Shown: positions 5,546 to 25,944, counted from the stretch's first letter. The stretch is 26,236 nt of DNA from an uncultured Melioribacteraceae bacterium (GCA_964601095.1 CAZRMG010000002.1:3202-29437); one strand, 5' to 3'. Translations and numbers: made by a program. Notes: generated by a model not told the origin, from the sequence alone.

Positions 5546-5563
5546 TACTAATCCTTCCGGTGT

Positions 5564-7476: not shown

Positions 7477-7484
7477 AAAAAGAA

Positions 7485-8363
7485 TTATTTTCTATTTACC
7501 AGAATAACTCCACCGATGATTATCAATCCACTTACAAGTGTTATAAGCGTAATTTGTTCATTCAACAAAATCCACGCACCGAAAAATGTTACAAAAGGTT
7601 CGATATAAAGAAATGCGCCGACTTTAGATGCACTCATTTCCTTCAGCGATTGAGCCCATAAAGCATATGCCGCGCCTGAACAAATTATGCCGAGAAACAA
7701 AATTGACATCCACCCGCCGGGAGTTAAATTAATAACAGACGATATGTTTTCTGCATTTAAAGTAAAAGGAAAAATTAAAACCGCCACAAAAAAGAACATG
7801 TAAAGAGTAGTCATTATCGGCGGATAGTGAAATGTAATTTTTTTATTAACCATTGAATATATTGACCACGTAATCGAACTTCCTACAACGAGTGCATCGC
7901 CTTTGTTTTTTACCAGGTCTATTGAGAATAAATCCCCTTTGCTTATAAGTAACAGTAAACCCAAGAACGCAATTACAATCCCGGTTGTTTGTTGTACTAA
8001 AATTTTTTCTTTGAAGAAAATAAAACTAAGAATTGCCATAAAAACCGGTGTAATGCCTATTATCCACCCCGTGTTCGATGCGCTCGTCCATTGCAAACCC
8101 GTAACTTGTATCCAGAGGTGGATGCATGCTATTAAAGCAAGAACAAAAACCCAGCCGTGATCTTTAAGATTAATCGAAAATTTTTTCTTCTGCTTAACTG
8201 CAATTATTGCTAAGAATGTCATTCCTAAAATTTGGCGGAGAAAAACTATCACTTCGGGACTTACTTCTTCCAAAGCATCTTTCGTGGCAATGAACGAAAA
8301 GCCCCAGACAATTACGGCAAACAGCGGCTTCCAATATATTTTAAATCTATCCATAAGTTTCAA
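7485..8363 (-). CDS. EamA/DMT-family transporter (true start may be the ATG at 8354)
   Basis: 292 aa, about 10 TM segments in two EamA repeats: VWGFSF, GLQWTSASNTGWII, YALWAQSLK, YIEPF. Confidence 0.92.
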   Translation of the reverse strand: MKLMDRFKIYWKPLFAVIVWGFSFIATKDALEEVSPEVIVFLRQILGMTFLAIIAVKQKKKFSINLKDHGWVFVLALIACIHLWIQVTGLQWTSASNTGWIIGITPVFMAILSFIFFKEKILVQQTTGIVIAFLGLLLLISKGDLFSIDLVKNKGDALVVGSSITWSIYSMVNKKITFHYPPIMTTLYMFFFVAVLIFPFTLNAENISSVINLTPGGWMSILFLGIICSGAAYALWAQSLKEMSASKVGAFLYIEPFVTFFGAWILLNEQITLITLVSGLIIIGGVILVNRK

Positions 8364-8477
8364 AATTACTTGAACGAAAATCCGAAATACGGTTCACTTA
8401 ATCCAAAAAATATTTTTATTCTGTAATATTTAAAAGATATCTTTGTATAGAAAAAATCTAACAAAGTAACTCAAACA

Positions 8478-9614
8478 TTGACCGGATATTTTATGGGGGT
8501 ATTAGTACGCGAGGTTCAAAGCAACGGCGATTTGAAGAAATTTATAAAGCTGCCTTTCGAAATTTATAAAAACAACAAATACTGGGTTCCCCCTTTATTG
8601 TTGGATGAAAAAAATAATTTAAACCGCAAAAAAAATCCTGCCTTTGATTTTTGCGAGGCAAAATACTGGCTCGCATTTAAGAACGATAGCGTTGTTGGAA
8701 GAATTGCAGGTATAATAAACCATAGATACAACGAAAAGGTTGGCAAGAAAACCGCTCGTTTCAGTTATCTCGATTTTATTGACGACACTGAAGTTGTCGA
8801 TAATCTTTTTTTTACCGCAGAAAGTTGGGCAAAAGAAAACGGCGCAACTTCAATTCATGGTCCCCTTGGTTTTACGGATATGGATCCTGAAGGAATGTTG
8901 ATTGAAGGATTTGAAGAACTCGGTACAATAGCAACTATTTACAATCATCAATATTATTCAAAACATATTGAACGACTCGGCTTCACAAAAGAGATCGATT
9001 GGATTGAATACGAAATATATCCGACAAAAGAGACACCGGAGAAGATTGAGAGAATTGCAAATATTGTTTTGGAAAGATATAAACTGAGTGTTCTTAAAGT
9101 AAAAAAAGCAAAGGAACTTTTACCGTACGCACATCAAATTTTTGAGGTTTTGAATCTTGCATACAAAGATATTCACGGATTTGTCTCTTTAACGGAAAAA
9201 CAAATCGATCTTTATGTAAAACAGTATTTCGGTTTTATTAAACCGGATTTTGTTCCGGTGATAGTAAATGAACAAAACGAAGTTGTTGCGTTTGGAATTA
9301 CAATGCCATCTCTTTCAAAGGCGTTTCAGAAAATACGCGGGCGGCTTTTACCATTTGGATTTCTATACATTTTGAAAGCTATGAAGAACAATCCCCGCGC
9401 AGATTTATATCTTACGGGCGTTAGGCCGGATTATCAAGACAAGGGTGTAAATGCCGTATTAATAAGCGAAACGAATAAGACTTATAAAAAATATAACATT
9501 CAAGTTGTCGAATCGAATCAAGAACTTGAAAACAACACAAAGGTTCAAGCCCAATGGCGTTTGTACGAAAGACGCCAACACAAGAGAAGACGCTGTTATA
9601 TAAAGCAATTATGA
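8478..9614 (+). CDS. GNAT-fold acyltransferase of the YghO / bacterial ceramide synthase (bCerS)-like family (probable start ATG 8493)
   Basis: 378 aa. FIKLPFEIYKNNKYWVPPLL, VVGRIAGIIN, HGPLGFTDMDPEGMLIEGF, YNHQYYSKHIERLGF, GVRPDYQDKGVNA and ESNQELENN are recognisable family motifs. Confidence 0.8.
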   Translation: MTGYFMGVLVREVQSNGDLKKFIKLPFEIYKNNKYWVPPLLLDEKNNLNRKKNPAFDFCEAKYWLAFKNDSVVGRIAGIINHRYNEKVGKKTARFSYLDFIDDTEVVDNLFFTAESWAKENGATSIHGPLGFTDMDPEGMLIEGFEELGTIATIYNHQYYSKHIERLGFTKEIDWIEYEIYPTKETPEKIERIANIVLERYKLSVLKVKKAKELLPYAHQIFEVLNLAYKDIHGFVSLTEKQIDLYVKQYFGFIKPDFVPVIVNEQNEVVAFGITMPSLSKAFQKIRGRLLPFGFLYILKAMKNNPRADLYLTGVRPDYQDKGVNAVLISETNKTYKKYNIQVVESNQELENNTKVQAQWRLYERRQHKRRRCYIKQL

Positions 9615-9674
9615 GTTGTGAATTTGAAACTATAAACGTTTATTAGTTTTTGCTATTAGGGGTTTATCGATTTT

Positions 9675-10466
9675 CTATTCTTTTAAAAAATCTTTCACCG
9701 TTGCTATCATATTTCTGTTCATCAAAATTTTATAATGACCGTAACCACTTGAGTAGAATGTCTTGATTCTGGAATTTGATGCGGCTATCTCAACTGCGTC
9801 TTCCACGGGTACTTCGTCGTCGTCGCTATCATGAACCAAAAGAATTTTTTTATCTAACATTTTTACGGCATTTGTAGTTAAGTAATCATCGACTGAAAAA
9901 TTAAATTCATGCTGAAGTTCGGTTTCCAATGTTTCTGCATTTTCGGCAGAAAGATTATTGTTTCTGCAAAATGATTTTATTAATCCCGAAATACTTTTCG
10001 GCGCACTTATCAGAACCAATTTTTCGATATCTACTTTGTAATCGTTAAAATTTTTTTGACCGGCAGCAATGACGGCAGAAGAAGCTGCGCCAAGTGAATA
10101 GCCTACAATTGCATAAACCGGACTTATTTTTTTCCCAACCGCCGCAATCGTCATGCAAAACTCAAACATACTTGAGTAGATTACTTCATTAGATTCTTTA
10201 ATTGATGAATGCCCCGGCGCATCGAAAGCAACTACGCGGAACCCGGATTCCGACAACTGCCGCGCTATCGGCGCCATATGGCTTGCCCGCGAACCCCATC
10301 CGTGTGCAAGTAATACTGTTTTTCCTTCTCCCCATTCGTAACATTGAATTGTCTTATCGCCGGAATAAATTTCAAATCTTTTAACAGACGAGATTGCTTT
10401 AATATCGAATGATGTAATTGGAGATTTTGGAACTGTACAAAATTTTTCTACCAACTCTGAATACAT
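9675..10466 (-). CDS. Alpha/beta-fold hydrolase
   Basis: LAHGWGS oxyanion region, GYSLG nucleophile elbow, HDSDDDEV acid, GYGH His. ATG at 10466 has a GGGGG SD, preferred over the TTG at 10487. Confidence 0.88.
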   Translation of the reverse strand: MYSELVEKFCTVPKSPITSFDIKAISSVKRFEIYSGDKTIQCYEWGEGKTVLLAHGWGSRASHMAPIARQLSESGFRVVAFDAPGHSSIKESNEVIYSSMFEFCMTIAAVGKKISPVYAIVGYSLGAASSAVIAAGQKNFNDYKVDIEKLVLISAPKSISGLIKSFCRNNNLSAENAETLETELQHEFNFSVDDYLTTNAVKMLDKKILLVHDSDDDEVPVEDAVEIAASNSRIKTFYSSGYGHYKILMNRNMIATVKDFLKE

Positions 10467-10504
10467 GCATTTCCCCCGAAAATACAAAACGTTAATAGGT
10501 ATTG

Positions 10505-11329
10505 TTAAAATACATTTATAATTTTTTTTGTATCTACCTTTATCGTGCTTATCAATTCCGGCAGTTTTTCGTTTTCTTTGTAGTAAATTCTTTCGAGAAA
10601 AAGTCCTGAAGGGGGCGCTGTAAATTTTGCCGGCGTTGGTGATTCGTGTTCTAAAAAATAAATTAAATCTTTCTCTGTTAATTTACCGCGTCCTATTTCG
10701 GCTAACACTCCGACCATTCTTCGAACCTGTTTCCACAAAAAATGCGAACCGATAATCCTTATCAAAATTAATTCGCCTTCTTCTTTCATTTGTACATCTT
10801 TAATTAAAACTTTTGTCGACTTGTCTTGGTCGTCTTTATCAGCAAATGAAATAAAATCGCGCATGCCGATGAAATGTTTTGATGCTTTTTCCATCTTATT
10901 AAAATCAAGCTGATCTTTAATCCACCAAACAAACGGTTTGCCAAAAGCAGTGCGTCTTCTTGAAATTTGATATAGATAACTTCTACTTGTTGTATCGTGC
11001 CTCGCGTGAAATTTTTGCGGAGCTTTTTCAACTTCAATAATATTTATATCCGCGGGTAATTCATCGTTAAACTTCATCCTAATGATTTCCGGTGCAAGCA
11101 TTGTTTTTACTTCGAGATGCGCAATCTGGCAAAGAGCATGAACGCCGGAATCGGTTCTGCCCGATCCGTAAATTTCCAAACGCTCATCCTTAAAACGAGA
11201 ATGTTTGTTCATAAAAATTTTTTCTGCGATTTCGTAAAGTTTACCTTGAACGCTTTTTGCGTTTTTCTGCATCTGCCAGCCGCTGTAACGCGTGCCTTCG
11301 TATTCTATGTAAAGTTTGAAACGCGACAT
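10505..11329 (-). CDS. truA: tRNA pseudouridine(38-40) synthase, TruA family
   Basis: YIEYEGTRYSGWQ, GSGRTDSGVHA (catalytic Asp), FHAR, GSHFLWKQVRRMVG and TAPPSGLFL motifs. ATG at 11329 chosen as start. Confidence 0.9.
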   Translation of the reverse strand: MSRFKLYIEYEGTRYSGWQMQKNAKSVQGKLYEIAEKIFMNKHSRFKDERLEIYGSGRTDSGVHALCQIAHLEVKTMLAPEIIRMKFNDELPADINIIEVEKAPQKFHARHDTTSRSYLYQISRRRTAFGKPFVWWIKDQLDFNKMEKASKHFIGMRDFISFADKDDQDKSTKVLIKDVQMKEEGELILIRIIGSHFLWKQVRRMVGVLAEIGRGKLTEKDLIYFLEHESPTPAKFTAPPSGLFLERIYYKENEKLPELISTIKVDTKKIINVF

Positions 11330-11527
11330 AAACAATTCCCATTAAAATCCATGCAAATGTATGAAACAAATAAGCGTGTTGCATATTTATAGTTAAAGAA
11401 TGATTTTAAAACATGCTTTATAATTAAGGATGTTATCGTGGAAAACAGTTCTCTTACCAATTATGGCAGATTCTATTTGATAAGAACTGGTAAATAAGTT
11501 TCGAAACAGGAACACAAAAAAATAATA

Positions 11528-11980
11528 GTGAGCGGGCAATTGAATAAATTATTCCCTGATCTAAAGATTATTGAAACCAATTATTTTGAAGTACACCAAG
11601 ACTGGGAAGTACCTATCCCCGGTTTTTTTATACTTGTACCTAAAAGAAAAATCAGATCTATTGATGAATTTACACATGAAGAGTCTTTGGAATACATAAA
11701 TCTTATTCGTAAAATCCGAGCTGCCATGAGAGAGAAAATAAATATTGAAAATGTTTATTTTTTCCAAAACGAGGATACAAAACACAATTATCATCTATGG
11801 ATTTTTCCGCGTTACGAATGGATGAAAGCGTTTGGAGGAGGAATTAATTCCGTAAAACCTATAATGAATTACGCGGTCGAAAATATGATTGATAAAAGCA
11901 ACATTGACGACGTACATACATGCGCGGCGAAAATGAAGAAATACATATCCGACAAATTTAAATTTAACAGCAAACATTAA
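11528..11980 (+). CDS. HIT-like nucleotide hydrolase family protein with a non-canonical triad
   Basis: 150 aa. PIPGFFILVPKRKIRSIDEFT and QNEDTKHNYHLWIFPRY match HIT-fold motifs. GTG start; convergent stop shares TTAA with the kinase gene. Confidence 0.75.
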   Translation: MSGQLNKLFPDLKIIETNYFEVHQDWEVPIPGFFILVPKRKIRSIDEFTHEESLEYINLIRKIRAAMREKINIENVYFFQNEDTKHNYHLWIFPRYEWMKAFGGGINSVKPIMNYAVENMIDKSNIDDVHTCAAKMKKYISDKFKFNSKH

Positions 11981-12897
11981 ATCATTCTTGACAGGAAATA
12001 TATTTCATCCTTTAGTATTTCCGCTTTTAAAGGAATCTTTCCTATCATCTCACCGTCGGCTTCAATTAAACACGGTTCGCCCACCGGTTCAATTGTACAA
12101 CTTTCAAATTCCTTGTAATACAATTCAGGGTGCTCAATAAATTTACCGCTGCGTATTCTAAAAATATTCTTTAAGTAGTCAAAAAGACTAACGTTTCCAG
12201 CCAAAGTTATTGAGAATTTTCCATCGTTAACTTTCGCGTGCGGTGCAATGCACAAGCCGCTTCCGAAATATTTTCCATTTGCAATACACAAAATCAATAA
12301 ACTTCCGGTCCACTTAAATTCACCGGATTCAATGTTTAATTTTTTTCTTTTATAATTTATGAATCCGAGAAGAGTGGCTTTAAAAAAATCGAAATTTGGT
12401 CCGTAAATTTTTTTGCCTTCGTTCACTCTTTTTGCAACTTCGGCACCGAGGCCAATATCTGCAATGTTATTAAAATATCTAACGCCGTCTTCGCCGTTCA
12501 TTTTTTTATATTCAAGCTTTCCGATATCTATTTTGTTAATTGAGTTTTGTTTTATCAATTCATAAAGGTCATTTAAATTTTTAGACAATTTCATAGTGCG
12601 GGAAAAATCATTACCGCTGCCAAGAGGATATAATCCAACGATCAAATTTTCTCTTTTTTCTTTTTCTACAAGCATAATTCCGTTTACAACCTCGCTCATT
12701 GTTCCGTCGCCGCCTGCTGCGATTATATAATCTGTTCCTTCAATCACTGCTTTTTTTGATAACGCGATGGCATTGCCGTTTCCGTTTGTGATGGCAACCG
12801 TTACAGAAAACTCATTGTCGAAAATTTTGTGGATTTCTTTTTTGGTGTGTCCGGCGTGTTTTAATCTGCCGTTTAAAACAAAGTATATTTTTTTCAA
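11977..12897 (-). CDS. Diacylglycerol-kinase-family lipid kinase (YegS/Rv2252/BmrU)
   Basis: 306 aa. AAGGDGTMSEVVNG, PLGSGNDF, NGKYFGSG and EADGE motifs. TTG start overlaps the upstream TGA (TTGA). Confidence 0.92.
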   Translation of the reverse strand: MKKIYFVLNGRLKHAGHTKKEIHKIFDNEFSVTVAITNGNGNAIALSKKAVIEGTDYIIAAGGDGTMSEVVNGIMLVEKEKRENLIVGLYPLGSGNDFSRTMKLSKNLNDLYELIKQNSINKIDIGKLEYKKMNGEDGVRYFNNIADIGLGAEVAKRVNEGKKIYGPNFDFFKATLLGFINYKRKKLNIESGEFKWTGSLLILCIANGKYFGSGLCIAPHAKVNDGKFSITLAGNVSLFDYLKNIFRIRSGKFIEHPELYYKEFESCTIEPVGEPCLIEADGEMIGKIPLKAEILKDEIYFLSRMI

Positions 12898-13103
12898 GAA
12901 TGATTTCTCATAATTTTATTTTCGGTTTGATTAAAATATTCAAACAAATGTCCACAAACCAAACACAATCTTGATGATTTTTCGTCGGATACTTTCTTGG
13001 GATCAAGAATAATAGTTGAGTATAATCCGCAAGCCGGGCATTTAACAGCATATGGATTCTCTATTGGGAAATTCTTTTCGTCCTTTTCTTCAGTTTTGAC
13101 CAT
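12894..13103 (-). CDS. Small stand-alone zinc-ribbon protein (CxxC-x21-CxxCGH)
   Basis: 69 aa with CPAC...CLVCGHLF. It fills the gap exactly: ATG 1 nt after the pabC stop, and its stop overlaps the kinase start. Confidence 0.65.
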   Translation of the reverse strand: MVKTEEKDEKNFPIENPYAVKCPACGLYSTIILDPKKVSDEKSSRLCLVCGHLFEYFNQTENKIMRNHS

Positions 13104-13104
13104 T

Positions 13105-13716
13105 TTAATATCCAGTTTTTATAACATCAATTGGTAAAACCGTCGCATCCTTGAATTCAACCATCGCATTTATCAATTTAATATTCTTGTAAGTATATAA
13201 ATCACTCGTTTTTATACTCCGCTCTATCACTCTTTTTTCGGACAGAAGTTTCGCACGCTGTGTGCCGGGTAAAAGACATTCTTTGGGTGTGAACCAATCT
13301 TTGCCGTCATAAAACAAAACATTTGAAAATGATGCGTCCGTAACAAAACCGTTTTTAATAATTAAAATATCTTCTTCGGCAGAGTTTGTGTTTTTCTGTT
13401 TTAATTTATCAATTGCCGATCTGTCGGTAAATTTATACTTGTAGGAAATTTCATCAGCATTAACCGAAATAAGTTTCTTAATATTTTTTCTTTCGTATTC
13501 TACAAATTCTATTCTATGAATTTCATAATCATAAAAAACACGGCATTTGTAAATTGTGTTTTTCAAATCATAAGGAATAGAAATTATGTTTTCAATATTA
13601 AGTTGTTTATTAATCTTCATAACATCGCGGCGGGTTTTGTTAAATCTTTCGTTGTGAAAGGAAATATTTGCCGGTTTCCCGTTTTCTATTTTTATCGATT
13701 CAAAAAATAGGGACAT
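13105..13716 (-). CDS. pabC: Aminotransferase class IV / 4-amino-4-deoxychorismate lyase-like
   Basis: 203 aa. FFESIKIENG, HNERFNKT, YKYKFTDR, VTDASFSNV and LLPGTQRAKLL; overlaps pabB by 17 bp. Confidence 0.82.
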   Translation of the reverse strand: MSLFFESIKIENGKPANISFHNERFNKTRRDVMKINKQLNIENIISIPYDLKNTIYKCRVFYDYEIHRIEFVEYERKNIKKLISVNADEISYKYKFTDRSAIDKLKQKNTNSAEEDILIIKNGFVTDASFSNVLFYDGKDWFTPKECLLPGTQRAKLLSEKRVIERSIKTSDLYTYKNIKLINAMVEFKDATVLPIDVIKTGY

Positions 13717-14671
13717 AAACTTTATCTATTAACTCTTGATATTCTTGTTCGGGATTACTCATAAATGTAATTCCACCTCCGCTTTTAAAATACAAACCGC
13801 CTTCTATTTTTTCTACAAAGCGAATCATAACAGCGCTGTCTAAATCCTTTCCGTCATAAATTCCAAAGATACCGGTGTAATAACCTCGATCATAATTTTC
13901 TGTTTTCTCAATTATTTCAAGAGTTTTTTTCTTCGGAGCACCGCTAATTGATCCTGCAGGCAGCAAGTTAAAAATAATATCACCCAATGATTCATTATAT
14001 TTTTCAGGCAGCATTCCTGAAATTTGAGAGCTGACCTGAAGCAAATTTTTATTGTGTGTTTCAATTATTTCCACATACCTGAATTTATCAACTTTTACAT
14101 TTCGTGCAACAATGCTAAGATCGTTGCGGATCAAATCAACAATTGTGATGTGTTCAGCTTTTTCTTTTTCATCGTTTAGAATTATCTGTTCTGCGTCCTC
14201 GATATCCGCATCAATTGTGCCCTTCATCGGGTGCGAATAAATATTTCCGTCTTTAATAGTTACAAATGTTTCGGGTGAAAACACAACGAATTGATTTTGG
14301 AAATACAGCTTGTATTTTGCTTTCGAAGCATGAAATATTTCCTGCAAAGAATAATTCGTTTCAATTTTAGTAGGAAATGTTAAATTTAATAAATACGTAT
14401 TACCCGCTTTTATATTCTCTTCAACAACATTAAATGCTGTTTTATATCTTTCGAAACTTACGGGATGTTTTTTAAACTCCAACTTTTTGTTTATAACAAA
14501 ATCATCGGGGTAGTTTTTATGATTATTCACTTTATATAAAATTAAATCCTGACTTACATCACCAAGCGGTATTACGAAGGGGAAATTCATTTTAAAATCT
14601 ATGATAAACAAGAATGGAATTCCGGCTTTACCGAGCCGGTTCATTTCCATAATTGCAACATTTGAATTCAT
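13700..14671 (-). CDS. pabB: Aminodeoxychorismate synthase component I, short form
   Basis: 323 aa. GNTYLLNLT, SPETF, PMKGT, EKAEHITIVDLIRNDL, PAGSISGAPK, RGYYTG, SAVMIRF and SGGGIT chorismate-binding motifs. Confidence 0.9.
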   Translation of the reverse strand: MNSNVAIMEMNRLGKAGIPFLFIIDFKMNFPFVIPLGDVSQDLILYKVNNHKNYPDDFVINKKLEFKKHPVSFERYKTAFNVVEENIKAGNTYLLNLTFPTKIETNYSLQEIFHASKAKYKLYFQNQFVVFSPETFVTIKDGNIYSHPMKGTIDADIEDAEQIILNDEKEKAEHITIVDLIRNDLSIVARNVKVDKFRYVEIIETHNKNLLQVSSQISGMLPEKYNESLGDIIFNLLPAGSISGAPKKKTLEIIEKTENYDRGYYTGIFGIYDGKDLDSAVMIRFVEKIEGGLYFKSGGGITFMSNPEQEYQELIDKVYVPIF

Positions 14672-14745
14672 TGTGATTTTAACTTTCTGTCTTTGACGAG
14701 CTTATTAAACATAGAAAGAAATATATTTTATCATATCATAAAATT

Positions 14746-15951
14746 TTAGATCGTATGTAATTCTTCCTTTAACGCATCGCCTATAATTTGTATTCCGCGT
14801 TGAATTTTATCTTCCGGCGTGTGCGAATACGATAGTCTGAAATGCGTATTATCTTTTCCTTCGGGGTCGAAAGTTTTGCCTACAACGAAAACCGCACCTT
14901 TTGAAATTGTTTTTTTGAGAACCGAAACAACATCAATTTGCGGTGGAAGTTTACACCAGATATAAAATCCTCCGCGCGGCTCGGTCCATGTTATTTCACC
15001 GGGAAAATATTTTTTTATGGCTTCAACCATAGAATCTTTACGGCGTTTATAAATTTTACGTAGGTCTGCGATATAATTATAAATTCCGCCGTTTTTTACA
15101 AATTCATTTGCAAGCACTTGTGTAAAATTAGGCGAGCATGCATCAATAGATTGTTTACACAATTCCGCTTTTTTATAAATGTCTTCGGGAACAAGCATCC
15201 AGCCCAATCGAAATCCCGGCCCTAATATTTTTGAAAACGCACCCGTATAACAAATCGTTAATTCTTTATCGTACATTGCTTTCATCGGGAGACATCTTTC
15301 TTTGTCCTCGTCGTCAAAATACAAATCGCCGTATGCATCGTCTTCAATTAAAGGAAGATCATATTCTTTAAGAAGTGCGAGGACTTCCTTTTTCCTTTCT
15401 TGAGTATATAATGTCCCGGCGGGATTATGAAAATTCAAAGTTAGATAAACAAATTTCGGCGGATTTTTTTTGTTCTGCTGTAAATATTTTTTTAAAATAT
15501 CTACATCTATTCCATCTTCATTTAAATCAATTCCTTTTAATTCGGCTTGATAAGATTTAAATGCCGAGATCGCCCCTATAAAACAAGGGTTTTCTGTTAC
15601 TACTTTATCGCCGGGATCTACAAAAACTTTTGCCAAAATATTAATCGCTTGGAGAGAACCTGTCGTTATCAAAAGTTTATTGTTATCAACGGGCAAACCT
15701 TTTTTCCGCAAATGTTCTTTCAATGTTTCGAGAAGCGGCGGATAGCCCGGCGTTGGTCCGTACTGAAAACCATCCTGTTTTGTTTTAAGAGGAAGTGAAT
15801 TATAAATTTCATCAATCTGTTTAACAGGAAAAAGCTCGTTGCCCGGCATTCCTCCAGCGAAGGAAATTATATCGGGACTTGTTGCAAGACTCATCAAATC
15901 ACGTATTTCAGATGTACGAAGCGAATCAACAACTTTTGAAAATTTTACCAT
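14746..15951 (-). CDS. PLP-dependent class I/II aminotransferase (LysN/aromatic aminotransferase-like, no HTH)
   Basis: 401 aa. ISFAGGMP, NFHNPAG, EDDAYGDL and FSKILGPGFRLGW (PLP lysine) motifs. Confidence 0.92.
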   Translation of the reverse strand: MVKFSKVVDSLRTSEIRDLMSLATSPDIISFAGGMPGNELFPVKQIDEIYNSLPLKTKQDGFQYGPTPGYPPLLETLKEHLRKKGLPVDNNKLLITTGSLQAINILAKVFVDPGDKVVTENPCFIGAISAFKSYQAELKGIDLNEDGIDVDILKKYLQQNKKNPPKFVYLTLNFHNPAGTLYTQERKKEVLALLKEYDLPLIEDDAYGDLYFDDEDKERCLPMKAMYDKELTICYTGAFSKILGPGFRLGWMLVPEDIYKKAELCKQSIDACSPNFTQVLANEFVKNGGIYNYIADLRKIYKRRKDSMVEAIKKYFPGEITWTEPRGGFYIWCKLPPQIDVVSVLKKTISKGAVFVVGKTFDPEGKDNTHFRLSYSHTPEDKIQRGIQIIGDALKEELHTI

Positions 15952-15974
15952 TTTTCTCTCTCAAACTTTTTTAT

Positions 15975-16039
15975 TGGTACACAGAAAATTATGATTAATC
16001 ATGATTTTTCATAAATGATCATATTAAATCTGTGTTCCA
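15975..16039. repeat. Intergenic inverted-repeat (REP/MITE-like) element sharing termini with 501-540
   Basis: TGGTACACAGA ... TCTGTGTTCCA (10/11 complementary) enclosing ATGATT/AATCAT repeats. The termini match GGAACRCAGA...TYTGYGTTCCAT of the first element. Confidence 0.55.
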
Positions 16040-16042
16040 TTT

Positions 16043-16468
16043 TTATAATTCGTAAATGTCGTTTGCTTTAACCAATTCCAATTTGTGTTTTTCAAGAATT
16101 GTAATTGTTTGTTCGACAGCTTCTGTTTTAATAATAACAGTAGCGCGGTTACTTAATGCAAAAGCATACATATATTCTACATCAATTCCTTCCGAGGAAA
16201 GAATTTTTAAAGCCCTGTGTAAACCGCCCGGTTCATTCGGAACTACAAGACCTATTACTTTTGTGATATGAACAGAAAATCCTTTTTCCTTCAAAACTTT
16301 TTCTGCTTCTTCGGGTTTATTAACTATAAGCCGCAAAATTCCATAGTCGGCAGTATCAGCAACACTAAACGCCGACATATTAATACCTGCAGAAGTTAAA
16401 ACTTCCGTAACTTCGGTAAGCCGCCCTGATTTGTTTTCAAGAAATATTGATAGTTGTTTTATAATCAT
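16043..16468 (-). CDS. Tandem ACT-domain protein of the type that accompanies phenylacetate-CoA ligase
   Basis: 141 aa. QLSIFLENKSGRL, SVADTADYGILRLIV, VPNEPGGL and VEYMYAF; 9 bp downstream of paaK. Confidence 0.92.
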   Translation of the reverse strand: MIIKQLSIFLENKSGRLTEVTEVLTSAGINMSAFSVADTADYGILRLIVNKPEEAEKVLKEKGFSVHITKVIGLVVPNEPGGLHRALKILSSEGIDVEYMYAFALSNRATVIIKTEAVEQTITILEKHKLELVKANDIYEL

Positions 16469-16477
16469 ATCAACCTT

Positions 16478-17776
16478 CTATAATTTTCTTTTGTCAATCA
16501 CGCGTTTAGCTTTTCCTTCACTGCGCTCGATTGTTTTCGGTTCAACAAGTTTTACATTTGCGTTTATCCCGAGCGCCGATTCGATATTGTGCTGAATTTT
16601 GTTTTTCAATCCTTCGAGTTTTTTAATTTCATCTGAGAAGAATTGGTCTTCAACTTCAACCCACACTTCAAGAATATCGAGATTGTTGACTCTATCAACA
16701 ATCAATAAATAGTGCGGCTTTGTTTCACTCATTTCCAAAAGTACCGTTTCAATCTGCGAAGGAAAAACATTTACTCCGCGGATAATCAACATGTCGTCAG
16801 ATCTTCCCAAACATTTTTGCATTCGAACAATGGTTCTTCCGCAAGAACATTTTTCATAATTCAAAGTTGTTAAATCGCGCGTACGGTAACGGAGAAGCGG
16901 TAAAGCTTCTTTTGTAATACACGTGAAAACGAGCTCACCGATTTGTCCTTCCGGTAAAACTTCGAGCGTTTGCGGATCAATAATTTCCGGAACGAAGTGA
17001 TCTTCAAAAATATGAAGACCTTGTTGGTGTAAACATTCTGAAGCAACGCCCGGGCCGATTATCTCGCTTAGTCCATAAATATCTATGGCTTTTATTTTTA
17101 ATTTGTCCTCAATTTCGCGGCGCATTTCTTCAGTCCACGGTTCAGCACCGAAAACACCGGCTTTTAATTTTAATGCATCGGGAGAAATTCCGTTTTCATT
17201 CATTGCTTCGGCAAGATATAAAGCATAAGAAGGTGTGCATGCAATAATTGTTGAACCAAAATCCTGCATAAGTTGTAATTGTCTCTGTGTGTTTCCTCCG
17301 GAAATTGGAATTACAGTTGCACCAATTTTTTCCGCACCGTAATGAACTCCCAATCCCCCGGTAAACAATCCATAGCCGTAAGCAATATGAAGAACATCAT
17401 TTTTACCCGCGCCGGCTGCGGTTAAAGTACGCGCCACAACTTCCGACCAAATTTCAATATCCTTTCTTGTGTAGCCGACAACGGTCGGTTTGCCTGTTGT
17501 ACCGCTTGAAGCATGAACGCGCACAACTTCTGATTTGGGAACTGCGAATAAACCGAAGGGGTAATTATCGCGTAAATCTTGTTTGGTTGTGAAAGGTAAA
17601 TTTTTTAGTTGATCGATGTTTTTAATATCGCCCGGTTCAATTCCGTTTCTTTGAAATAAGCCGCGGTAAAAAGGAACATTGTAATAAAGTCGGTGAATCA
17701 TCGCCGATAAACGCTCGCCCTGAAGTTTTACAAGTTTTTCGCGTTCCATGCATTCGATGTAATCGTTCCAGATCAT
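16478..17776 (-). CDS. paaK: Phenylacetate--CoA ligase (AMP-forming aryl-acetate CoA ligase)
   Basis: 432 aa. [11 protein letters not shown]-loop, [43 protein letters not shown] and [11 protein letters not shown]. Confidence 0.95.
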
Positions 17777-17976
17777 AAAAGAATGTGTGGTGTTTTGTGT
17801 GTTTAGATTTATAGTTTATTATTTACGCATAAAAATAGACAACGTCGTCAAGAGTTGCAATTAAAGATGATTTTTATGTTCGCGACTTAAACAATCAATT
17901 CTCTTGCGGGACTTTATCTAATGCCGTAATTTTTCAATTAGATAATTTAATCTAATTTATAAGCGAGATTTCTGTT

Positions 17977-19575
17977 ATGAATAAATTATTATTGTTGGGT
18001 GCTGAGGCAATTGCGCAGGGCGCTATCGATGGGGGCATGTCGGGAGTTTACGCCTACCCCGGAACTCCTTCGACAGAAATAACCGAGTACATTCAGAAAT
18101 CGAAATTTGCGAAAGAGAAGAAAATCCATAGCCGGTGGTCTGTAAACGAAAAGACCGCTATGGAAGCCGCGCTTGGAATGTCGTATGCAGGCAAACGCGC
18201 AATGGTTTGTATGAAACATGTCGGTTTGAATGTAGCCGCCGATCCGTTTATTAATTCAGCAATAACCGGCGTGAACGGCGGGTTGATTGTTGCTGTTGCC
18301 GACGACCCCTCTATGCATTCATCACAAAACGAACAGGACTCGCGTTTCTTCGGAAAGTTTGCTATGATACCGATACTGGAACCTTCGAATCAGCAGGAAG
18401 CTTACGATATGGCACGCGAAGGATTTGCCCTTTCAGAGAAATATAAAACACCCGTGATGATTAGAATAACAACACGACTTGCACATTCGCGCTACGGGGT
18501 TGAGACAAAAAATCAAATTGAGGAAAATTCTATTTCACTCCCCGGTGATCCGAAACAATTTGTTCTGCTTCCTGCAATTGCACGCAACCGTTATAAAATT
18601 TTACTCAATAACCAAAAAAATTTTGAAGCTGAATCCGAAACTTCACCGCACAACAAATTCATCGATGGAAAAAATAAATCACATGGCATTGTTGCATGTG
18701 GAATAGCTTATAACTATTTATTAGAAAATTTTGAAAACCATGTTTGTGATTTTCCTGTTGTAAAAATCGGGCAGTATCCTCTTCCGAAAAATTTGTTACA
18801 TAAACTTTATACTGTGTGCGATGAAATACTTGTTCTTGAAGACGGTTATCCCCTTGTAGAAGAAACTTTAAACGGGTTTTACGGTTGCGGTAAAAAAATC
18901 AGCGGCAGGTTAAACGGCTTTCTTCCGCGCGACGGGGAATTAAATCCTACGATAGTTGCAAAAGCCCTCGGATTGAAAACAAAAGAAGGTTTGCTCGTTC
19001 CTGAAATTGTTGCAAACCGTCCGCCGGAATTATGCACGGGCTGCAGCCATCGCGATATTTACGAAGCTTTAAACGAAGCGATGAAATCGTTCGGCGAGAA
19101 AAGAGTTTTCTCCGACATCGGCTGTTATACGCTTGGTGCGCTTCCGCCGTTTAATGCCATAAATTCTTGCATCGATATGGGCGCATCAATAACTATGGCA
19201 AAAGGCGCAGCCGACGCAGGACTTGTTCCTTCTGTCGCAGTAATCGGTGATTCAACTTTTACTCATTCAGGTATCACAGGATTGCTTGATGCGGTGAATG
19301 AAAAATCGAATATAACCGTTATAATTTCGGATAACTCGGCAATTGCAATGACTGGTGGACAGGATTCTTCCGCAACAGGAAAGCTTGAACAAATTTGTCT
19401 GGGAATTGGTATTGAACCCGAGCACATACGAATTTTATTCCCGGTTCCCAAAAATCATAACGAAATGATAAACATTTTAAAAGAGGAACTTGCATACTGC
19501 GGTGTTTCAGTTATTATTTCACAAAGGGAGTGTATTCAAACTTTAACAAAGAAAAAGAAGTTGGACAAAGTATAA
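17977..19575 (+). CDS. iorA: Indolepyruvate:ferredoxin oxidoreductase alpha subunit, without a C-terminal ferredoxin domain
   Basis: 532 aa. AYPGTPSTE, NEKTAME, MKHVGLNVAAD, DDPSMHSSQNEQD, RPPELCTGCSH, SDIGCY and GDSTFTHSG (ThDP-binding). Confidence 0.93.
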   Translation: MNKLLLLGAEAIAQGAIDGGMSGVYAYPGTPSTEITEYIQKSKFAKEKKIHSRWSVNEKTAMEAALGMSYAGKRAMVCMKHVGLNVAADPFINSAITGVNGGLIVAVADDPSMHSSQNEQDSRFFGKFAMIPILEPSNQQEAYDMAREGFALSEKYKTPVMIRITTRLAHSRYGVETKNQIEENSISLPGDPKQFVLLPAIARNRYKILLNNQKNFEAESETSPHNKFIDGKNKSHGIVACGIAYNYLLENFENHVCDFPVVKIGQYPLPKNLLHKLYTVCDEILVLEDGYPLVEETLNGFYGCGKKISGRLNGFLPRDGELNPTIVAKALGLKTKEGLLVPEIVANRPPELCTGCSHRDIYEALNEAMKSFGEKRVFSDIGCYTLGALPPFNAINSCIDMGASITMAKGAADAGLVPSVAVIGDSTFTHSGITGLLDAVNEKSNITVIISDNSAIAMTGGQDSSATGKLEQICLGIGIEPEHIRILFPVPKNHNEMINILKEELAYCGVSVIISQRECIQTLTKKKKLDKV

Positions 19576-19646
19576 AATGTATTAGATTGGTTGCCCAATT
19601 TAATTAAAAGTAGAAATAGTAATTTATTAAGAAATTTTGCCGGGTT

Positions 19647-20222
19647 ATGAAAAGAGACATAATTTTAGCAGGCGTTGGGGGACAGGGAATTTTATCAATC
19701 GCGGCGATAATCGGTTTTGCCGCGTTGGAAAAAAATCTTTTTGTAAAACAAGCCGAAGTTCATGGAATGAGTCAACGCGGCGGCGCAGTTCAATCCCACT
19801 TAAGAATTTCTTCAAAAGAAGTCGCTTCGGATTTAATTCCGTTTGGCGAAGCAGATATAATTTTATCTGTCGAGCCGATGGAGTGTTTGCGGTATCTGCC
19901 GTATTTATCTTCCGACGGATGGATAATTACAAACACAACACCCTTTGTTAATATTTCGAATTACCCTGATGTTAACGAATTACTTTTAAAAATAAAATCT
20001 TATAAAAATGTTGTTACAATAAACGCCGACGAAATTGCAAAAAGAATAGGTTCACAAAAATCTTCAAATGTTGTTTTACTCGGCGCTGCATCTCGCTATT
20101 TGGAAATCCCTTTCGAAAATCTTGAAAGCGGGATTAAAACATTATTCGGCCCAAAAGGCGAAAGTGTTGTTAATAAAAATATAACGGCGTTAAAAGAGGG
20201 ACACAAATCCATTCTTATTTAA
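19647..20222 (+). CDS. iorB: Indolepyruvate:ferredoxin oxidoreductase beta subunit
   Basis: 191 aa. AGVGGQG, EVHGMSQRGGAVQSHLR and NVVLLGA. Confidence 0.93.
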   Translation: MKRDIILAGVGGQGILSIAAIIGFAALEKNLFVKQAEVHGMSQRGGAVQSHLRISSKEVASDLIPFGEADIILSVEPMECLRYLPYLSSDGWIITNTTPFVNISNYPDVNELLLKIKSYKNVVTINADEIAKRIGSQKSSNVVLLGAASRYLEIPFENLESGIKTLFGPKGESVVNKNITALKEGHKSILI

Positions 20223-20263
20223 CGACCAATTTTCCTCAAAGAAAAAAGCAAAGAGGAAGACGA

Positions 20264-22333
20264 ATGGAATCACTTAAAAATTTTTTCTATCCGAAATCTA
20301 TTTGCATCGCCGGCGCAATCGCAAAAGAAAAAAGTATCGGACGCGAAATGCTCGCATCAATTAAAAATTACGGCTACACAGGTAAGGTTTTTCCCGTAAA
20401 CAATAAGCTTGATGAAACACTCGGTTATAAAGTTTATCATTACATCGAAGAGATTGAAGAACAAATTGATCTTGGAATAATCATTATCCCCAAGCAATTT
20501 GCGGAGGCAACTGTTGATGCTTTCCTCGCCAAGAATGTTAAATCTATAATCTTAATTTCCGCGGGATTCGAGGAAGTCGGTAAAGAGGGCGAGGAACTTC
20601 AAAACAAAATTGTACATAAAATAAATTCTCACGGCGCACGCCTTGTTGGTCCAAACTGCATGGGCTTAATAAACACGCTTGACGAAATAAAACTCAATGC
20701 GACTTTTGTTGCTGAAAAACCGGAGACGGGTTCAACCGGATTTTTATCGCAAAGCGGTGCACTCGGTGCGGCTGTATTAAATTCGCTGCGGGAAACTGAA
20801 ATTAAGTTCGCACATTTTATTAGTGTCGGAAACAAAGCCGATGTTTTTGAAAACGATATTTTGAATTTTTGGAACAACGACGACAATATAAAAACAATGA
20901 CTTTTTACTTAGAAAGTTTTGTTGAAGGTAAAAATTTTATAAAACCTTTTATTAAGGGAGAGATAAAAAAACCGGCTGTTGTTTTAAAATCGGGAAAAAC
21001 AAAAAGCGGAATGAAAGCGGCATCTTCACACACCGGGGCTTTAAGCGGTAAAGATAAAGTTACAGATTCTCTTCTCAGACAATTCGGAATTATACGCGCG
21101 GAAAATTTAAACGAGCTTTTTAACACGGCAAAAGGATTTGAACATTTCCCGCTTCCAAAAGGAAACAGAGTTGCTGTAATTACAAACGCCGGGGGCCCCG
21201 CAATTTTATGCGTTGATAAAATTGATAACGAAGGATTGGTTCTCGCGGATTTTTCCGAAGACACAAAATCAAAACTTCGAAGCGTTGTTCATCCCGAAGG
21301 AAGCATTAACAACCCTGTTGATTTATTGCCGGGCGGCACTGCGGAGGTTTATAGGAATTCTATTGAAATTGTTGCGGCCGATAAAAATGTTGATGCCTTG
21401 ATTTCAATTTTTGTTGAGCCGATAATGGTTCCTGCTTTTGAGGTGATTGAAGAAATTAATTCAATCAACTGCGACAAGCCGGTTTTACAAATTGTTATGC
21501 CGCTGCCGGAGTTTTGGAGCAAATACATAAATGAATCGAAGCGAAAAATTCCTCTTTTTAAAAATCCCGAAGACCCGGCGGAAGTTATTGCGAACATGCT
21601 TTTCTATGTGCAAACAAAAGATCGCTTAAACCGAAATAAGAACATTTATTCGGAATTGCTGAATATTTTTCCGGCTTCAAAAAACAATATTTCAAATAAA
21701 TTTTTATCACAAGGGCAGGTTCATAAACTTTGTGAACAATACAACCTTCCAACAATAAAAAGCAGAATTGTAAAAGTAGTTGATCCTACAAAAATCGAAA
21801 ATGACTTTTACCCGATTGTTTTAAAAGGAATAAATGAAAAAGTAATTCACAAATCCGAAATGAGTGCGGTAAAATTAAACATCAAAAATCCGGATGAATT
21901 GTTCTCTGCCGCAGCCGAAATAAAAAATAGTTTTGCCAATGCCGGTTATGAAGTTGAAGAATTTCTCGTTCAAAAATTTATTGAAACAAAACACGAATTA
22001 ATTATAGGCGGCTTCCGAGATCCGTCTTTTGGTCCGGTAATTTTATTCGGTTCGGGCGGTAAATATGTTGAAGTGTACGATGATATTGCAATAAAATCTT
22101 GTTACTTATGCGATGACGATATTGAAGATATGATTGATAGAACCAAGATTGGAAAAATATTACGCGGTGTTCGCGGCGAAGAATCTTGCAACATTCACGA
22201 ACTAAAAAGAATAATTAATTCATGCGCGAGAATGATGCTTGAAAACGAAAACATTTCCGAGTTTGATATAAACCCGCTTATTGTTGATCGGAATAATAAA
22301 TATTTTGCAGTTGACGTAAGAATTAAAAGTTAG
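20264..22333 (+). CDS. ADP-forming acyl-CoA synthetase (acetate--CoA ligase family), fused alpha-beta
   Basis: 689 aa. CoA-binding domain, GPNCMG, SQSGALG, SVGNKADV, phospho-His motif ASSHTGAL, TNAGGP, NPVDL, and a C-terminal ATP-grasp (ELIIGGFRDPSFGP, DINPL). No GNAT domain. Confidence 0.9.
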   Translation: MESLKNFFYPKSICIAGAIAKEKSIGREMLASIKNYGYTGKVFPVNNKLDETLGYKVYHYIEEIEEQIDLGIIIIPKQFAEATVDAFLAKNVKSIILISAGFEEVGKEGEELQNKIVHKINSHGARLVGPNCMGLINTLDEIKLNATFVAEKPETGSTGFLSQSGALGAAVLNSLRETEIKFAHFISVGNKADVFENDILNFWNNDDNIKTMTFYLESFVEGKNFIKPFIKGEIKKPAVVLKSGKTKSGMKAASSHTGALSGKDKVTDSLLRQFGIIRAENLNELFNTAKGFEHFPLPKGNRVAVITNAGGPAILCVDKIDNEGLVLADFSEDTKSKLRSVVHPEGSINNPVDLLPGGTAEVYRNSIEIVAADKNVDALISIFVEPIMVPAFEVIEEINSINCDKPVLQIVMPLPEFWSKYINESKRKIPLFKNPEDPAEVIANMLFYVQTKDRLNRNKNIYSELLNIFPASKNNISNKFLSQGQVHKLCEQYNLPTIKSRIVKVVDPTKIENDFYPIVLKGINEKVIHKSEMSAVKLNIKNPDELFSAAAEIKNSFANAGYEVEEFLVQKFIETKHELIIGGFRDPSFGPVILFGSGGKYVEVYDDIAIKSCYLCDDDIEDMIDRTKIGKILRGVRGEESCNIHELKRIINSCARMMLENENISEFDINPLIVDRNNKYFAVDVRIKS

Positions 22334-22429: not shown

Positions 22430-22519
22430 CGGATTAAGATAATCTGCATAAACACTTTCGATTAATTTAATGATTCGTGCAGATAATCTTTATCCATTCT
22501 TTTCGGTTCGTGGCCATCG

Positions 22520-22545
22520 GCCGCGGCAAGCGGCTTTTTTATTTT
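22520..22545 (+). terminator. Intrinsic terminator inside the ABC-F 5' leader
   Basis: GCCGC-GGCAA-GCGGC followed by TTTTTTATTTT, ending 46 nt upstream of the ABC-F ATG. Confidence 0.75.
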
Positions 22546-22591: not shown

Positions 22592-24100
22592 ATGAAAAAA
22601 CATTTTTTGAAATTCGCCAACGTTTCATTCGGATACGAAGATTCTCCAACCGATATATTCCGAGATGTATCTTTTCAATTATCAACCGGTTGGACGGGAT
22701 TAATCGGTGCGAACGGTTCCGGCAAAACCACGCTGCTCAAACTTGCATGCGGATTGTTGGATTGCACAAGCGGAAAAATAGAATCACCGGATAATTTTTA
22801 TTATAATGAACAGCGGACGGATGCTGCCCCTGAACAGTTTCATAATTTTTTAAGCAGCTTCGATAAACCGGCTTTTAAATTAATTGACGAACTAAGAATC
22901 GAGCAAGATTGGGTTACTCGTTGGGACACGCTTTCTCACGGTGAGAGAAAGCGCGTTCAAATTGCATGCGCACTGTGGAATCAACCGGATTTACTGGCGA
23001 TTGACGAGCCAACAAATCATCTCGATATGATCGCAAAAAATATGATTGTAGATTCGTTGAAATCATTCAAAGGGATCGGGTTGATTGTAAGTCACGACAG
23101 AGATTTGATGGAAAATCTTTGCGAACAATTTTTATTTATCGATTTCGGAAAAGTTGAATACAGGCGCGGACGATTATCCGACACAACAGCACAGCGTCAA
23201 CTTGAAAACGAATCCGCGTTGAAGCAATTCGAAATGAAACAAATTGAAATCTCAAAACTTGAGAATGAATATAAACGACGCAGCGAGATTGTTGAGCAAT
23301 CAAAAAAGAAAATATCGAAGCGGAATATCGACCGAAAAGACAGAGATGCAAAAGGCAAAATCGATTTGGCAAGATTGACGGGAAAGGATGCAGGCGCCGG
23401 GAGACTAAAAACAATAATGTCTACAAGATTGGAAAACGCTAAAACAGAATTGCAGAGTATCGATATCAAACGCGGTTATAAAACCGGGATAATGCTTTCA
23501 TCGTCGGTCTCGCCCCGCAATTATCTTTTAAATCTCGAATCCGGTTCACTACAATTATCCGCCGCTAAAAAATTGGTTTATAACAACCTCGTTATTCTTC
23601 CGCAGGATAAAATCGCTCTCACAGGTGAAAATGGTTCCGGCAAAAGCTCTCTCATCAAACATATATTAACCCAACTAAATGCCGATTCGGAAAATATTAC
23701 TTACATACCGCAGGAAATATCCATCGACGAAACAAAAGAGCTGATGAACGAGATACACAACCTGCCGAACGAACAACTTGGGAAATTATTGATAATCGTC
23801 AGCCGACTCGGTTCCGATGCAAAACGAATTCTTGAAACAGATTTACCGAGTCCCGGCGAAACACGAAAGCTGCTGCTTGGTTTGGGCATCACCAAAAATC
23901 CGCACATAATAATAATGGATGAACCGACAAATCACATGGATATTGTTTCGATTGAATGTCTCGAATATGCGCTAAAAAATGTTTCGTGTGCCATGCTGCT
24001 AATAAGTCACGATAAACGATTTTTGTCCCAACTGACGGCTATTGAATGGAAAATTAATTCTATCTCAAATGAAAACGAATTACTTGTAAAATATCATTAG
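22592..24100 (+). CDS. ABC-F family ribosome-associated ATPase (antibiotic-resistance ABC-F-like architecture)
   Basis: 502 aa. Two NBDs (GANGSGKTT/LSHGE/DEPTNHLD/SHD and GENGSGKSS/PSPGE/DEPTNHMD/SHD), no TM domain, and a basic helical linker of about 115 aa. Confidence 0.92.
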   Translation: MKKHFLKFANVSFGYEDSPTDIFRDVSFQLSTGWTGLIGANGSGKTTLLKLACGLLDCTSGKIESPDNFYYNEQRTDAAPEQFHNFLSSFDKPAFKLIDELRIEQDWVTRWDTLSHGERKRVQIACALWNQPDLLAIDEPTNHLDMIAKNMIVDSLKSFKGIGLIVSHDRDLMENLCEQFLFIDFGKVEYRRGRLSDTTAQRQLENESALKQFEMKQIEISKLENEYKRRSEIVEQSKKKISKRNIDRKDRDAKGKIDLARLTGKDAGAGRLKTIMSTRLENAKTELQSIDIKRGYKTGIMLSSSVSPRNYLLNLESGSLQLSAAKKLVYNNLVILPQDKIALTGENGSGKSSLIKHILTQLNADSENITYIPQEISIDETKELMNEIHNLPNEQLGKLLIIVSRLGSDAKRILETDLPSPGETRKLLLGLGITKNPHIIIMDEPTNHMDIVSIECLEYALKNVSCAMLLISHDKRFLSQLTAIEWKINSISNENELLVKYH

Positions 24101-25119: not shown

Positions 25120-25944
25120 ATGAAGAACGCAGAAAAGATAATTCAATTTGTATTGCCCGGTATTGAACCGGAAATTATTTTGACTCACGGTTATGGAATT
25201 GAAAATAATTTCCCGGTTCATTTCCATAAAACTTTCAGTCTTGGAATAATTGAATCCGGCAAACGTGAATTAACCGTGCGCGGGACGAAATATATTATTA
25301 AGAAGGGGGATGTTTTTGTAATTCAACCCTTCGAACCGCATTCGATTAATGCTGTTTACGACAAGAGGCATACTTACAAAATAATTTCATTTGATTTTTG
25401 CGAAATATCATCTTCATATTTTCCCGAGCTAGTAATAAAGGATAGATCTTTGTTTGAATTGATTGAATTATTTCACGACCATTGCGAGTATAATTATTCG
25501 AATAAAACCGTACTTGATAAGTTAACCGAAATAAAAAAGTTGCTGTCTCGTTTCACTTTGCCGTTGATTGAATGTAAACCACCGTTAGCGGAAACGATAA
25601 ACAAAGCAAAATCATTTATTGAGAATAATTGTACGCGGGAAATCTCGATTGAAGAAATTGCTTCGGAAGCATGCCTCAGCACATATCATTTCACAAGACT
25701 ATTCCACAATGAAATCGGGATGTCTCCGTATGCTTTTCTAATCTACAGACGTGTAAAAGCTTCATTGAGTAAACTGGAACAGAACACTCTTAATGTTGCC
25801 GCTGCTTTGGATTCCGGTTTTTTCGATCAAAGTCATTTTATTAAAACATTTAAAAAGCACGTAGGAGTAACACCGGGAAAATTTTTGAACAAACACAACA
25901 AAACAATCGAATGCGAATCAAATAACAATGAGAAATCTTTATGA
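25120..25944 (+). CDS. AraC-family transcriptional regulator
   Basis: 274 aa. N-terminal FPVHFH cupin-like sensor; C-terminal IEEIASEACLSTYHFTRLF and SGFFDQSHFIKTFKKHVGVTPGKF. Confidence 0.93.
   Translation: MKNAEKIIQFVLPGIEPEIILTHGYGIENNFPVHFHKTFSLGIIESGKRELTVRGTKYIIKKGDVFVIQPFEPHSINAVYDKRHTYKIISFDFCEISSSYFPELVIKDRSLFELIELFHDHCEYNYSNKTVLDKLTEIKKLLSRFTLPLIECKPPLAETINKAKSFIENNCTREISIEEIASEACLSTYHFTRLFHNEIGMSPYAFLIYRRVKASLSKLEQNTLNVAAALDSGFFDQSHFIKTFKKHVGVTPGKFLNKHNKTIECESNNNEKSL

Follow-up and report, generated by a model that had tools for sequence, protein, structure and literature searches.

Can a single bacterial gene cluster run aromatic amino acid metabolism in either direction, fermenting the amino acids to aryl acids with a gain of ATP and rebuilding them from such acids at its expense? 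The question is raised by six genes at positions 14746-22333 of a 26,236-nucleotide stretch of DNA (hereafter the window) from an uncultured Melioribacteraceae bacterium (Ignavibacteria, Bacteroidota; GCA_964601095.1, CAZRMG010000002.1:3202-29437), whose metagenome-assembled genome comprises 690 contigs and is 83% complete. A minus-strand arm, encoding a PaaK-type ligase, an ACT-domain protein and an aminotransferase, diverges there from a plus-strand arm, encoding the IorA and IorB subunits of indolepyruvate:ferredoxin oxidoreductase (IOR) and a fused alpha-beta NDP(ADP)-forming acyl-CoA synthetase (ACD). An initial annotation of the window had described the two arms as the anabolic entry and the catabolic exit around a shared IOR. 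Our check of the open reading frames (ORFs) recovered all six at the same coordinates and strands, with the 200-bp divergent gap at 17777-17976, and the gene identities hold when judged by Pfam and NCBIfam profiles, solved relatives and catalytic motifs; all six genes are single-copy in the source genome. Among the metabolites commonly cross-fed in anoxic sediments, peat and guts are the arylacetates (phenylacetate, 4-hydroxyphenylacetate, indoleacetate), and it is disputed which way IOR runs on balance in Bacteroidota, since both production (Zhu et al., 2023, cited in PMC13285125) and biosynthesis (proposed in PMC13285125) have been put forward. The answer that we prefer, with the case for it about evenly poised, is that in this one clade two known modules have been joined around a single IOR.

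According to this reading, the minus-strand arm, probably continuing into the adjacent genes pabB and pabC, would together with IorAB most likely salvage aryl-acetic acids. PaaK would make the CoA ester of phenyl-, hydroxyphenyl- or indole-acetate, at the cost of converting ATP to AMP; IOR would then carboxylate the aryl-acetyl-CoA reductively to the arylpyruvate by means of reduced ferredoxin, and the aminotransferase would turn the latter into Phe, Tyr or Trp, with the tandem-ACT protein as a likely small-molecule sensor on PaaK. On the plus strand, the ordinary housekeeping ACD of the order would have been brought behind iorB by the insertion of a block of five genes (iorAB, paaK, ACT and aminotransferase, contiguous in the window), so that it now begins 41 nt after iorB. 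Whenever IOR works oxidatively, this ACD could convert aryl-acetyl-CoA to the acid and ATP, and acetyl-CoA and further acyl-CoAs, made by the PFOR- and VOR-type oxidoreductases also encoded in the source genome, would be substrates too.

What stays invariant in this arrangement is the trio paaK-ACT-aminotransferase, which iorAB often accompanies; ACD stands outside this core. Across the 41 genomes of the order, PaaK and the ACT protein (family ACT_8) are found in the identical four, always adjacent and always with IOR, and in each neighbourhood that has these genes the aminotransferase adjoins the pair, nearly always as the next one after ACT. Close ACT homologues keep the order PaaK-ACT-aminotransferase in nine of nine metagenomic neighbourhoods, and even at the distant locus L147, where the ACT_8 protein is only 36% identical, it stands beside a PaaK-type ligase, an aminotransferase and pabB-pabC. 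The five-gene set recurs in G001 (a genome of the same genus), G041, G011, G014 and at locus L139; in G011 and G014 it forms a single co-directional operon, iorA-iorB-paaK-ACT-aminotransferase, and the metagenomic contig L151 shows four of the five genes before it ends inside ACT. The strict adjacency of PaaK and ACT suggests a functional pair, and we found no description of this pairing in the open literature.

The ligase (16478-17776, minus strand) has the AMP-binding and AMP-binding_C_2 architecture (PF00501, PF14535) with adenylate-forming core motifs including GRSDD, and its best solved relatives are Burkholderia PaaK1 (2y27, 489.6 bits) and PDB 4r1l (425.3 bits), which is labelled phenylacetate-CoA ligase. 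Since its scores stay below the equivalog cut-offs (TIGR02155, 615.7 versus 646.3 bits; NF041878, 589.3 versus 700), we regard it as an AMP-forming member of the PaaK family, not a proven equivalog, with predicted arylacetate activity. The ACT protein (16043-16468, minus strand) starts 9 nt after PaaK and belongs to ACT_8: it is a stand-alone tandem ACT-domain protein of about 140 aa that scores 120.4 bits against PF19571 (gathering score 23.5) and matches PDB 2f06 with 149 bits. A predicted ACT-PaaK complex scored 0.38, with 0.00 for the best of three controls; the runs agreed in at least 97% of contacts, and the predicted local distance difference test (pLDDT) value of the partners was at least 82. 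Of 80 solved complexes 58 pass the mark that we used, as do two of 110 mismatched pairs, but passing scores of up to 0.60 comprise just seven of the 80 solved complexes and both of the mismatches that passed, and the prediction thus weakly supports binding. Should the ACT protein regulate PaaK, a large family of uncharacterised proteins (about 2000 clusters at 50% identity, E <= 1e-10) would gain a function; its one solved structure, 2f06, has none assigned. The third member of the trio (14746-15951, minus strand; PF00155, 122.6 bits) is a class I/II aminotransferase of the KAT-II/LysN/multiple-substrate type. Its pyridoxal phosphate-lysine motif AFSK...GPGFRLGW is intact, and its best solved relatives are Pyrococcus PH0207 (1x0m, 3aov; about 313 bits) and the Thermococcus multiple-substrate aminotransferase 1wst (289.5 bits).

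Of the two IOR subunits, IorB (19647-20222, plus strand; PF01558, 122.6 bits) passes its equivalog cut-off (NF005324, 291 versus 222 bits), and IorA (17977-19575, plus strand; POR_N and TPP_enzyme_C) stays under its own (TIGR03336, 537 versus 650.9 bits), covering profile positions 2-537 of 595. IorA is a short form of 532 aa that lacks the C-terminal 2x[4Fe-4S] ferredoxin-like part, a point absent from the initial annotation; the motif CxxCxxCxxxC is not present in the window protein, and the conserved Cys353, Cys356, Cys383 and Cys519 are candidates for the ligands of one cluster. Short forms of this kind appear to be usual in the phylum, as matches at the 80 closest IorA loci (Bacteroidota, species-representative genomes) extend over about 518-532 residues. 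No solved structure of IOR was found.

The assignment of aromatic substrates may be wrong in detail, and the trio and IOR could act on non-classical ones, e.g., methionine-derived, branched-chain or imidazole acids. That PaaK and IorA each narrowly miss their equivalog cut-offs, that the aminotransferase falls into a group of broad specificity (2-aminoadipate, kynurenine and multiple-substrate enzymes), and that the genomes G044 (locus L146) and G045 (locus L141) carry the trio with no IorA-type subunit would all fit such a possibility. We nevertheless consider it improbable, given that IorB passes its cut-off, that two solved chains labelled phenylacetate-CoA ligase match PaaK with 490 and 425 bits, and that the ligase colocalised with IOR in Bacteroides is reported in PMC13285125 as an arylacetate-CoA ligase. 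At E <= 1e-40, G044 and G045 show neither an IorA-type subunit nor an ACD, and each has four other POR_N oxidoreductases; a VOR- or PFOR-type enzyme may be the partner of the trio there.

The minus-strand arm appears to extend beyond the aminotransferase, which the initial annotation did not mention. On the same strand, 74 nt further downstream and with no minus-strand terminator predicted between, lies pabB (13700-14671), which encodes a short form of aminodeoxychorismate synthase component I (NF005486, 487.7 bits, cut-off 275). It is overlapped by 17 nt by a pabC-like gene for a class IV aminotransferase resembling aminodeoxychorismate lyase (13105-13716, minus strand; PF01063, 58.7 bits), a possible tail of the minus-strand transcription unit. 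The pair neighbours the module also in G001, at L139, on contig P0009 and at the distant L147 (4233-5808). PabB next to the trio is a short form of about 325 aa, and genes of p-aminobenzoate (PABA) synthesis thus travel with an arylacetate module. At L139 a 63-aa ORF (11692-11883) with a weak PaaD-like zinc-ribbon match stands between the aminotransferase gene and pabB, where the window has the 74-nt gap.

These neighbours bear on whether the locus might be wholly catabolic, with aminotransferase, oxidative IOR and ACD gaining ATP from the fermentation of aromatic amino acids to aryl acids, PaaK working backwards (AMP + PPi to ATP) or else just recovering excreted aryl acids, and ACT tuning the flux. 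Seven genomes of the order have IOR and an unlinked ACD with no PaaK, so that IOR in the order often works without an AMP-forming ligase; the aminotransferase is closest to enzymes of peptide-fermenting Thermococcales, and the production of phenylacetate is reported to be lost in Bacteroides IOR mutants (Zhu et al., 2023, cited in PMC13285125). However, the trio is repeatedly linked to the biosynthetic pabBC, G011 and G014 keep IOR, PaaK, ACT and aminotransferase without any ACD, and AMP-forming ligases normally favour CoA-ester formation, as is argued in PMC13285125. A purely catabolic locus is in our opinion quite unlikely. The source genome and four relatives encode chorismate synthase (aroC), prephenate dehydratase and acetate kinase; with a de novo aromatic pathway present, the aryl-acid salvage that we favour would be supplementary.

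What, then, is the role of the ACD? The gene (20264-22333, plus strand) encodes CoA_binding, Succ_CoA_lig, Ligase_CoA_2 and ATP-grasp_5 domains in the subdomain order 1-2-5-4-3 with both phosphohistidines; His256 (SHTGAL) and His529 (IHKS) align with H256 and H535 of Nmar_0206 (PMC11494057), and the best solved relative is 8wzu (352 bits). The protein scores under the acetate-CoA ligase alpha equivalog cut-off (TIGR02717, 446.7 versus 567 bits). It is the sole ACD of the source genome, and an ACD that follows iorB (hereafter linked) is likewise the sole one in each genome that could be searched. At the level of the order, ACD is not tied to IOR: 37 of the 41 genomes have an ACD and 11 have IorA, and two of the IOR genomes are without an ACD. 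G011 and G014, with their IOR/PaaK operon, yielded none even in a search with the family model.

The iorB-ACD junction was found in four genomes or contigs, namely the window, G001, G041 ('Melioribacter sp. fen_1284') and L151, which represent three diverged lineages. Compared with the window, IorA of G041 is 80% and its ACD 63% identical, and the ACD of L151 is 68% identical; across the three lineages the linked ACDs share 63-69% of their residues and the DNA is 72-78% identical, the latter range holding also for L151 against the other linked loci. The gap between iorB and ACD is 41 nt in the window and 41-50 nt over the four loci. Moreover, the linked ACDs share a distinct set of residues. 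All four have Ile19, where every one of 111 unlinked ACDs (32 genomic and 79 metagenomic orthologues, the latter collected with search patterns that flank residue 19 without including it) and all four solved ACD relatives that were aligned have Ser19. All four likewise have Ser99, found in none of 62 aligned unlinked ACDs (all Thr99) and in one further case among the 79 metagenomic loci. Gly71, Ile74 and Met533, common to IOR-linked ACDs only, complete the signature; control triples yielded 0-2 signature-like positions, as against four for the linked ACDs. The single unlinked ACD with Ser99 (LISAG) is that of L210 (Ga0105101_10005166), which keeps Ser19 (GAST) and shows no ior gene in the 1.8 kb available upstream. 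Relatives that have IOR and the ADP-forming enzyme only, IOR and the AMP-forming ligase only, or IOR with both ligases next to each other offer a natural comparison, and Ile19 and Ser99 are a concrete, testable marker of IOR-attached ACDs.

How the ACD came to lie behind iorB is suggested by relatives that are free of the block. In G003, G019, L159, L162 and L172, pabC-pabB diverges from ACD with nothing between, and in the simplest history the five-gene block entered between these two loci, next to pabB on one side and ACD on the other. In phylogenetic trees the linked ACDs sit among the vertically inherited orthologues of the family, and a single origin of the linkage is plausible: the approximately unbiased (AU) test did not reject the linked ACDs as one clade (p = 0.41), and with L151 included p rose to 0.88 and the constrained tree had the higher likelihood. 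A convergent linkage in two lineages had been considered because the first tree parted G041 from the genus of the window; it is not called for by the AU tests, and it is further weakened by L151, which joins the genus of the window at 100% support. A recombination tract carrying the IOR block and the 5' end of ACD between lineages was also rejected, as residues 1-60 of the G041 protein are 62% identical to the window and 72% to an unlinked sister. Dating the insertion in G041 proved uninformative, for the flanking genes share just a repeated C-terminal domain with the other loci, and the iorB-ACD spacers could not be aligned between lineages.

Several observations weigh against the reading that we prefer. 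ACD occurs as a vertically inherited orthologue in 37 of the 41 genomes of the order, and IOR is missing from at least 26 of these 37; its ancestral job therefore cannot be aryl-specific. The acyl-contact residues mapped from PMC11494057 (M133, F148, A166, P356 and P386) are the same in linked and unlinked ACDs, and a retuned acyl pocket, which we had considered, was discarded on the ground that the five positions are unchanged save for P386L in L151. The signature changes, placed at the level of the subdomain, fall in the Rossmann subdomain, which binds the adenyl head of CoA according to bioRxiv 10.1101/2025.09.22.677778. With unchanged acyl contacts and changes confined to the subdomain for the CoA head, nothing points to a new acyl specificity; CoA handling may have been altered when the ACD became attached to IOR. 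If the linked ACDs form one clade, linkage and signature are a single event, and the correlation of four versus 111 has an effective sample size of one. At L139 and on contig P0009, which share the divergent layout and the left flank of the window (pabB, pabC, lipid kinase, truA), a glycosyltransferase or a DUF6051 gene follows iorB. The ackA of the source genome offers an alternative route from acyl phosphates to acids. An amino-acid-responsive RNA element, which as a T-box might have been a regulatory sign of the biosynthetic direction, is missing, as Rfam has no match anywhere in the window (no T-box, riboswitch or other RNA element). Finally, B. thetaiotaomicron IOR, paired only with an AMP-forming ligase, is reported to yield phenylacetate in vivo (Zhu et al., 2023, cited in PMC13285125), and the type of ligase thus does not settle the direction.

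Many of these observations would be expected of a neutral juxtaposition, in which the salvage module landed between pabB and a housekeeping, acetate-forming ACD, which keeps its general turnover of acetyl- and short-chain acyl-CoA and has no special tie to IOR, and in which Ile19 and Ser99 are lineage drift. The presence of ACD regardless of IOR, the block-free pabC-pabB/ACD loci, the unchanged acyl pocket and the other genes behind iorB at L139 and on P0009 all agree with it, and so does the finding that 71 of the 80 closest IorA loci have iorA-iorB with neither ligase within 10 kb; as a single origin of the linkage was not rejected, the signature could be one historical accident. On the other hand, Ser19 is invariant in the 111 unlinked ACDs and the four solved relatives, so that drift there must be very rare, yet it coincides with the linkage, and the junction stayed tight (41-50 nt) while the ACDs diverged to 63-69% identity. 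We regard neutral juxtaposition as a possibility to be taken seriously, albeit a somewhat unlikely one, and a coupling of ACD and IOR in this clade as plausible. Returning to the proposal of the initial annotation, its two-arm locus around a shared IOR stands as far as the layout is concerned, the six genes being kept in three diverged lineages and ACT being strictly paired with PaaK. The proposal is a fair reading of the genes present, and it draws some support from the tight junction and from the residue signature of the linked ACDs within the one clade. Its catabolic arm fares less well: judged by sequence and distribution, with the ACD order-wide, sole in its genome and unchanged in its acyl pocket, that arm is the general ACD of the organism and not a dedicated aryl-CoA enzyme. 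The initial annotation had also accepted that lack of conservation would speak against it, and the cluster is indeed not conserved outside one narrow clade, with L139 and P0009 having no ACD after iorB.

The divergent region 17777-17976 contains two back-to-back sigma70-like promoter candidates: one facing paaK on the minus strand, TTGCAA (17860-17855) and TATTTT (17837-17832) at a distance of 17 nt, and one facing iorA on the plus strand, TTGCGG (17904-17909) and TAATTT (17927-17932), likewise 17 nt apart. Both pairs of boxes and their spacing are kept in the window, G001 and the diverged G041, with drifted flanking sequence, and they presumably act as promoters. No terminator is predicted between iorB and ACD, and a GAGGA ribosome-binding site precedes the latter. 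The first strong intrinsic-terminator-like hairpin past ACD is located at 22519-22545 on the plus strand (stem GGCCGC...GCGGCT followed by TTTTTATTTT) and is the probable end of an iorA-iorB-ACD transcript; given the short gap and the want of a predicted terminator, the three genes are likely co-transcribed. We also considered the loss of a TAnnTTTG box upstream of linked ACDs, which was dropped as not significant (none of four linked versus 32 of 103 unlinked). At unlinked ACD loci (L014, L138, L022 and others) a TATTTTTG box 25-75 nt upstream of the start fits the Bacteroidota -7 element TAnnTTTG, which suggests that Ignavibacteria use Bacteroidota-type promoters for ACD.

Could the locus then work as a switch, as the opening question implies? 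The sole ACD of the organism, wired to IOR and carrying the changes Ser19 to Ile and Thr99 to Ser, would create a node that runs either as ATP-yielding fermentation or as ATP-spending salvage, and the ACT protein would gate PaaK by amino acid supply, preventing futile cycling of the two ligases. We speculate on such a switchable node as an unlikely extension of the joining that we prefer.

Each arm is of a known kind; their combination, in one small clade, is what is unusual, and we did not find both ligases at one IOR locus described in the literature. The nearest parallel is in Bacteroides, where the ligase found together with IOR is AMP-forming and, in an assay, acted as an arylacetate-CoA ligase; an anabolic, methanogen-like role is proposed in PMC13285125 (2026). 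The short IorA of about 530 aa, IorB, the PaaK-type ligase and the question of direction are the same there, but the ligase gene lies downstream of iorAB, whereas in the window paaK is divergent from iorAB and followed by ACT and the aminotransferase, and ACD follows iorB. Methanococcus maripaludis makes aromatic amino acids from aryl acids through IOR (Porat et al., cited in PMC4162585). As there, where reductive IOR stands beside a complete de novo pathway, the source genome has aroC and prephenate dehydratase; unlike the present organism, M. maripaludis is archaeal and has a long IorA with a ferredoxin domain. To our knowledge, no linkage to ACT or ACD is known in M. maripaludis.

On the fermentative side, the Peptostreptococcales have IOR/VOR clusters that adjoin Pta and an acyl kinase or an ADP-forming ligase (PMC13285125, sections 2.7-2.8). 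They share with the window a 2-oxoacid:ferredoxin oxidoreductase beside an ATP-conserving exit enzyme of family PF13607, and are set apart, by the description in those sections only, in that no AMP-forming ligase, ACT protein or aminotransferase is described in the same locus. In peptide fermentation by Pyrococcus and Thermococcus, aminotransferase, IOR and ADP-forming acyl-CoA synthetase act together (Mai and Adams, 1994, cited in PMC13285125). The window has the same three enzyme types, with an aminotransferase closest to those of Thermococcales, but there several split-subunit ACD isoenzymes exist, including a dedicated aryl-CoA form, in contrast to one fused general ACD here. The aryl-CoA-using isoenzyme of Thermococcales is ACS II.

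A larger locus was seen in a Prolixibacteraceae genome (L089, OY782766, about 3400-20800), which has an ACD-like gene (30% identical), ACT, iorA, iorB and paaK, and in addition another ACT protein and a further IOR-like pair that is only distantly related (22% identical). The window itself, with 36% G+C, also contains SusC/RagA genes, a combination that points to Bacteroidota, and its closest public records are MAGs of Melioribacter and Ignavibacteria. On the 3' side of the cluster, and with no tie to it that we could see, lie an ABC-F ribosomal-protection-like ATPase gene at 22592-24100 (NF000355, 306 bits, under the cut-off) and a gene for an AraC-family regulator at 25120-25944.

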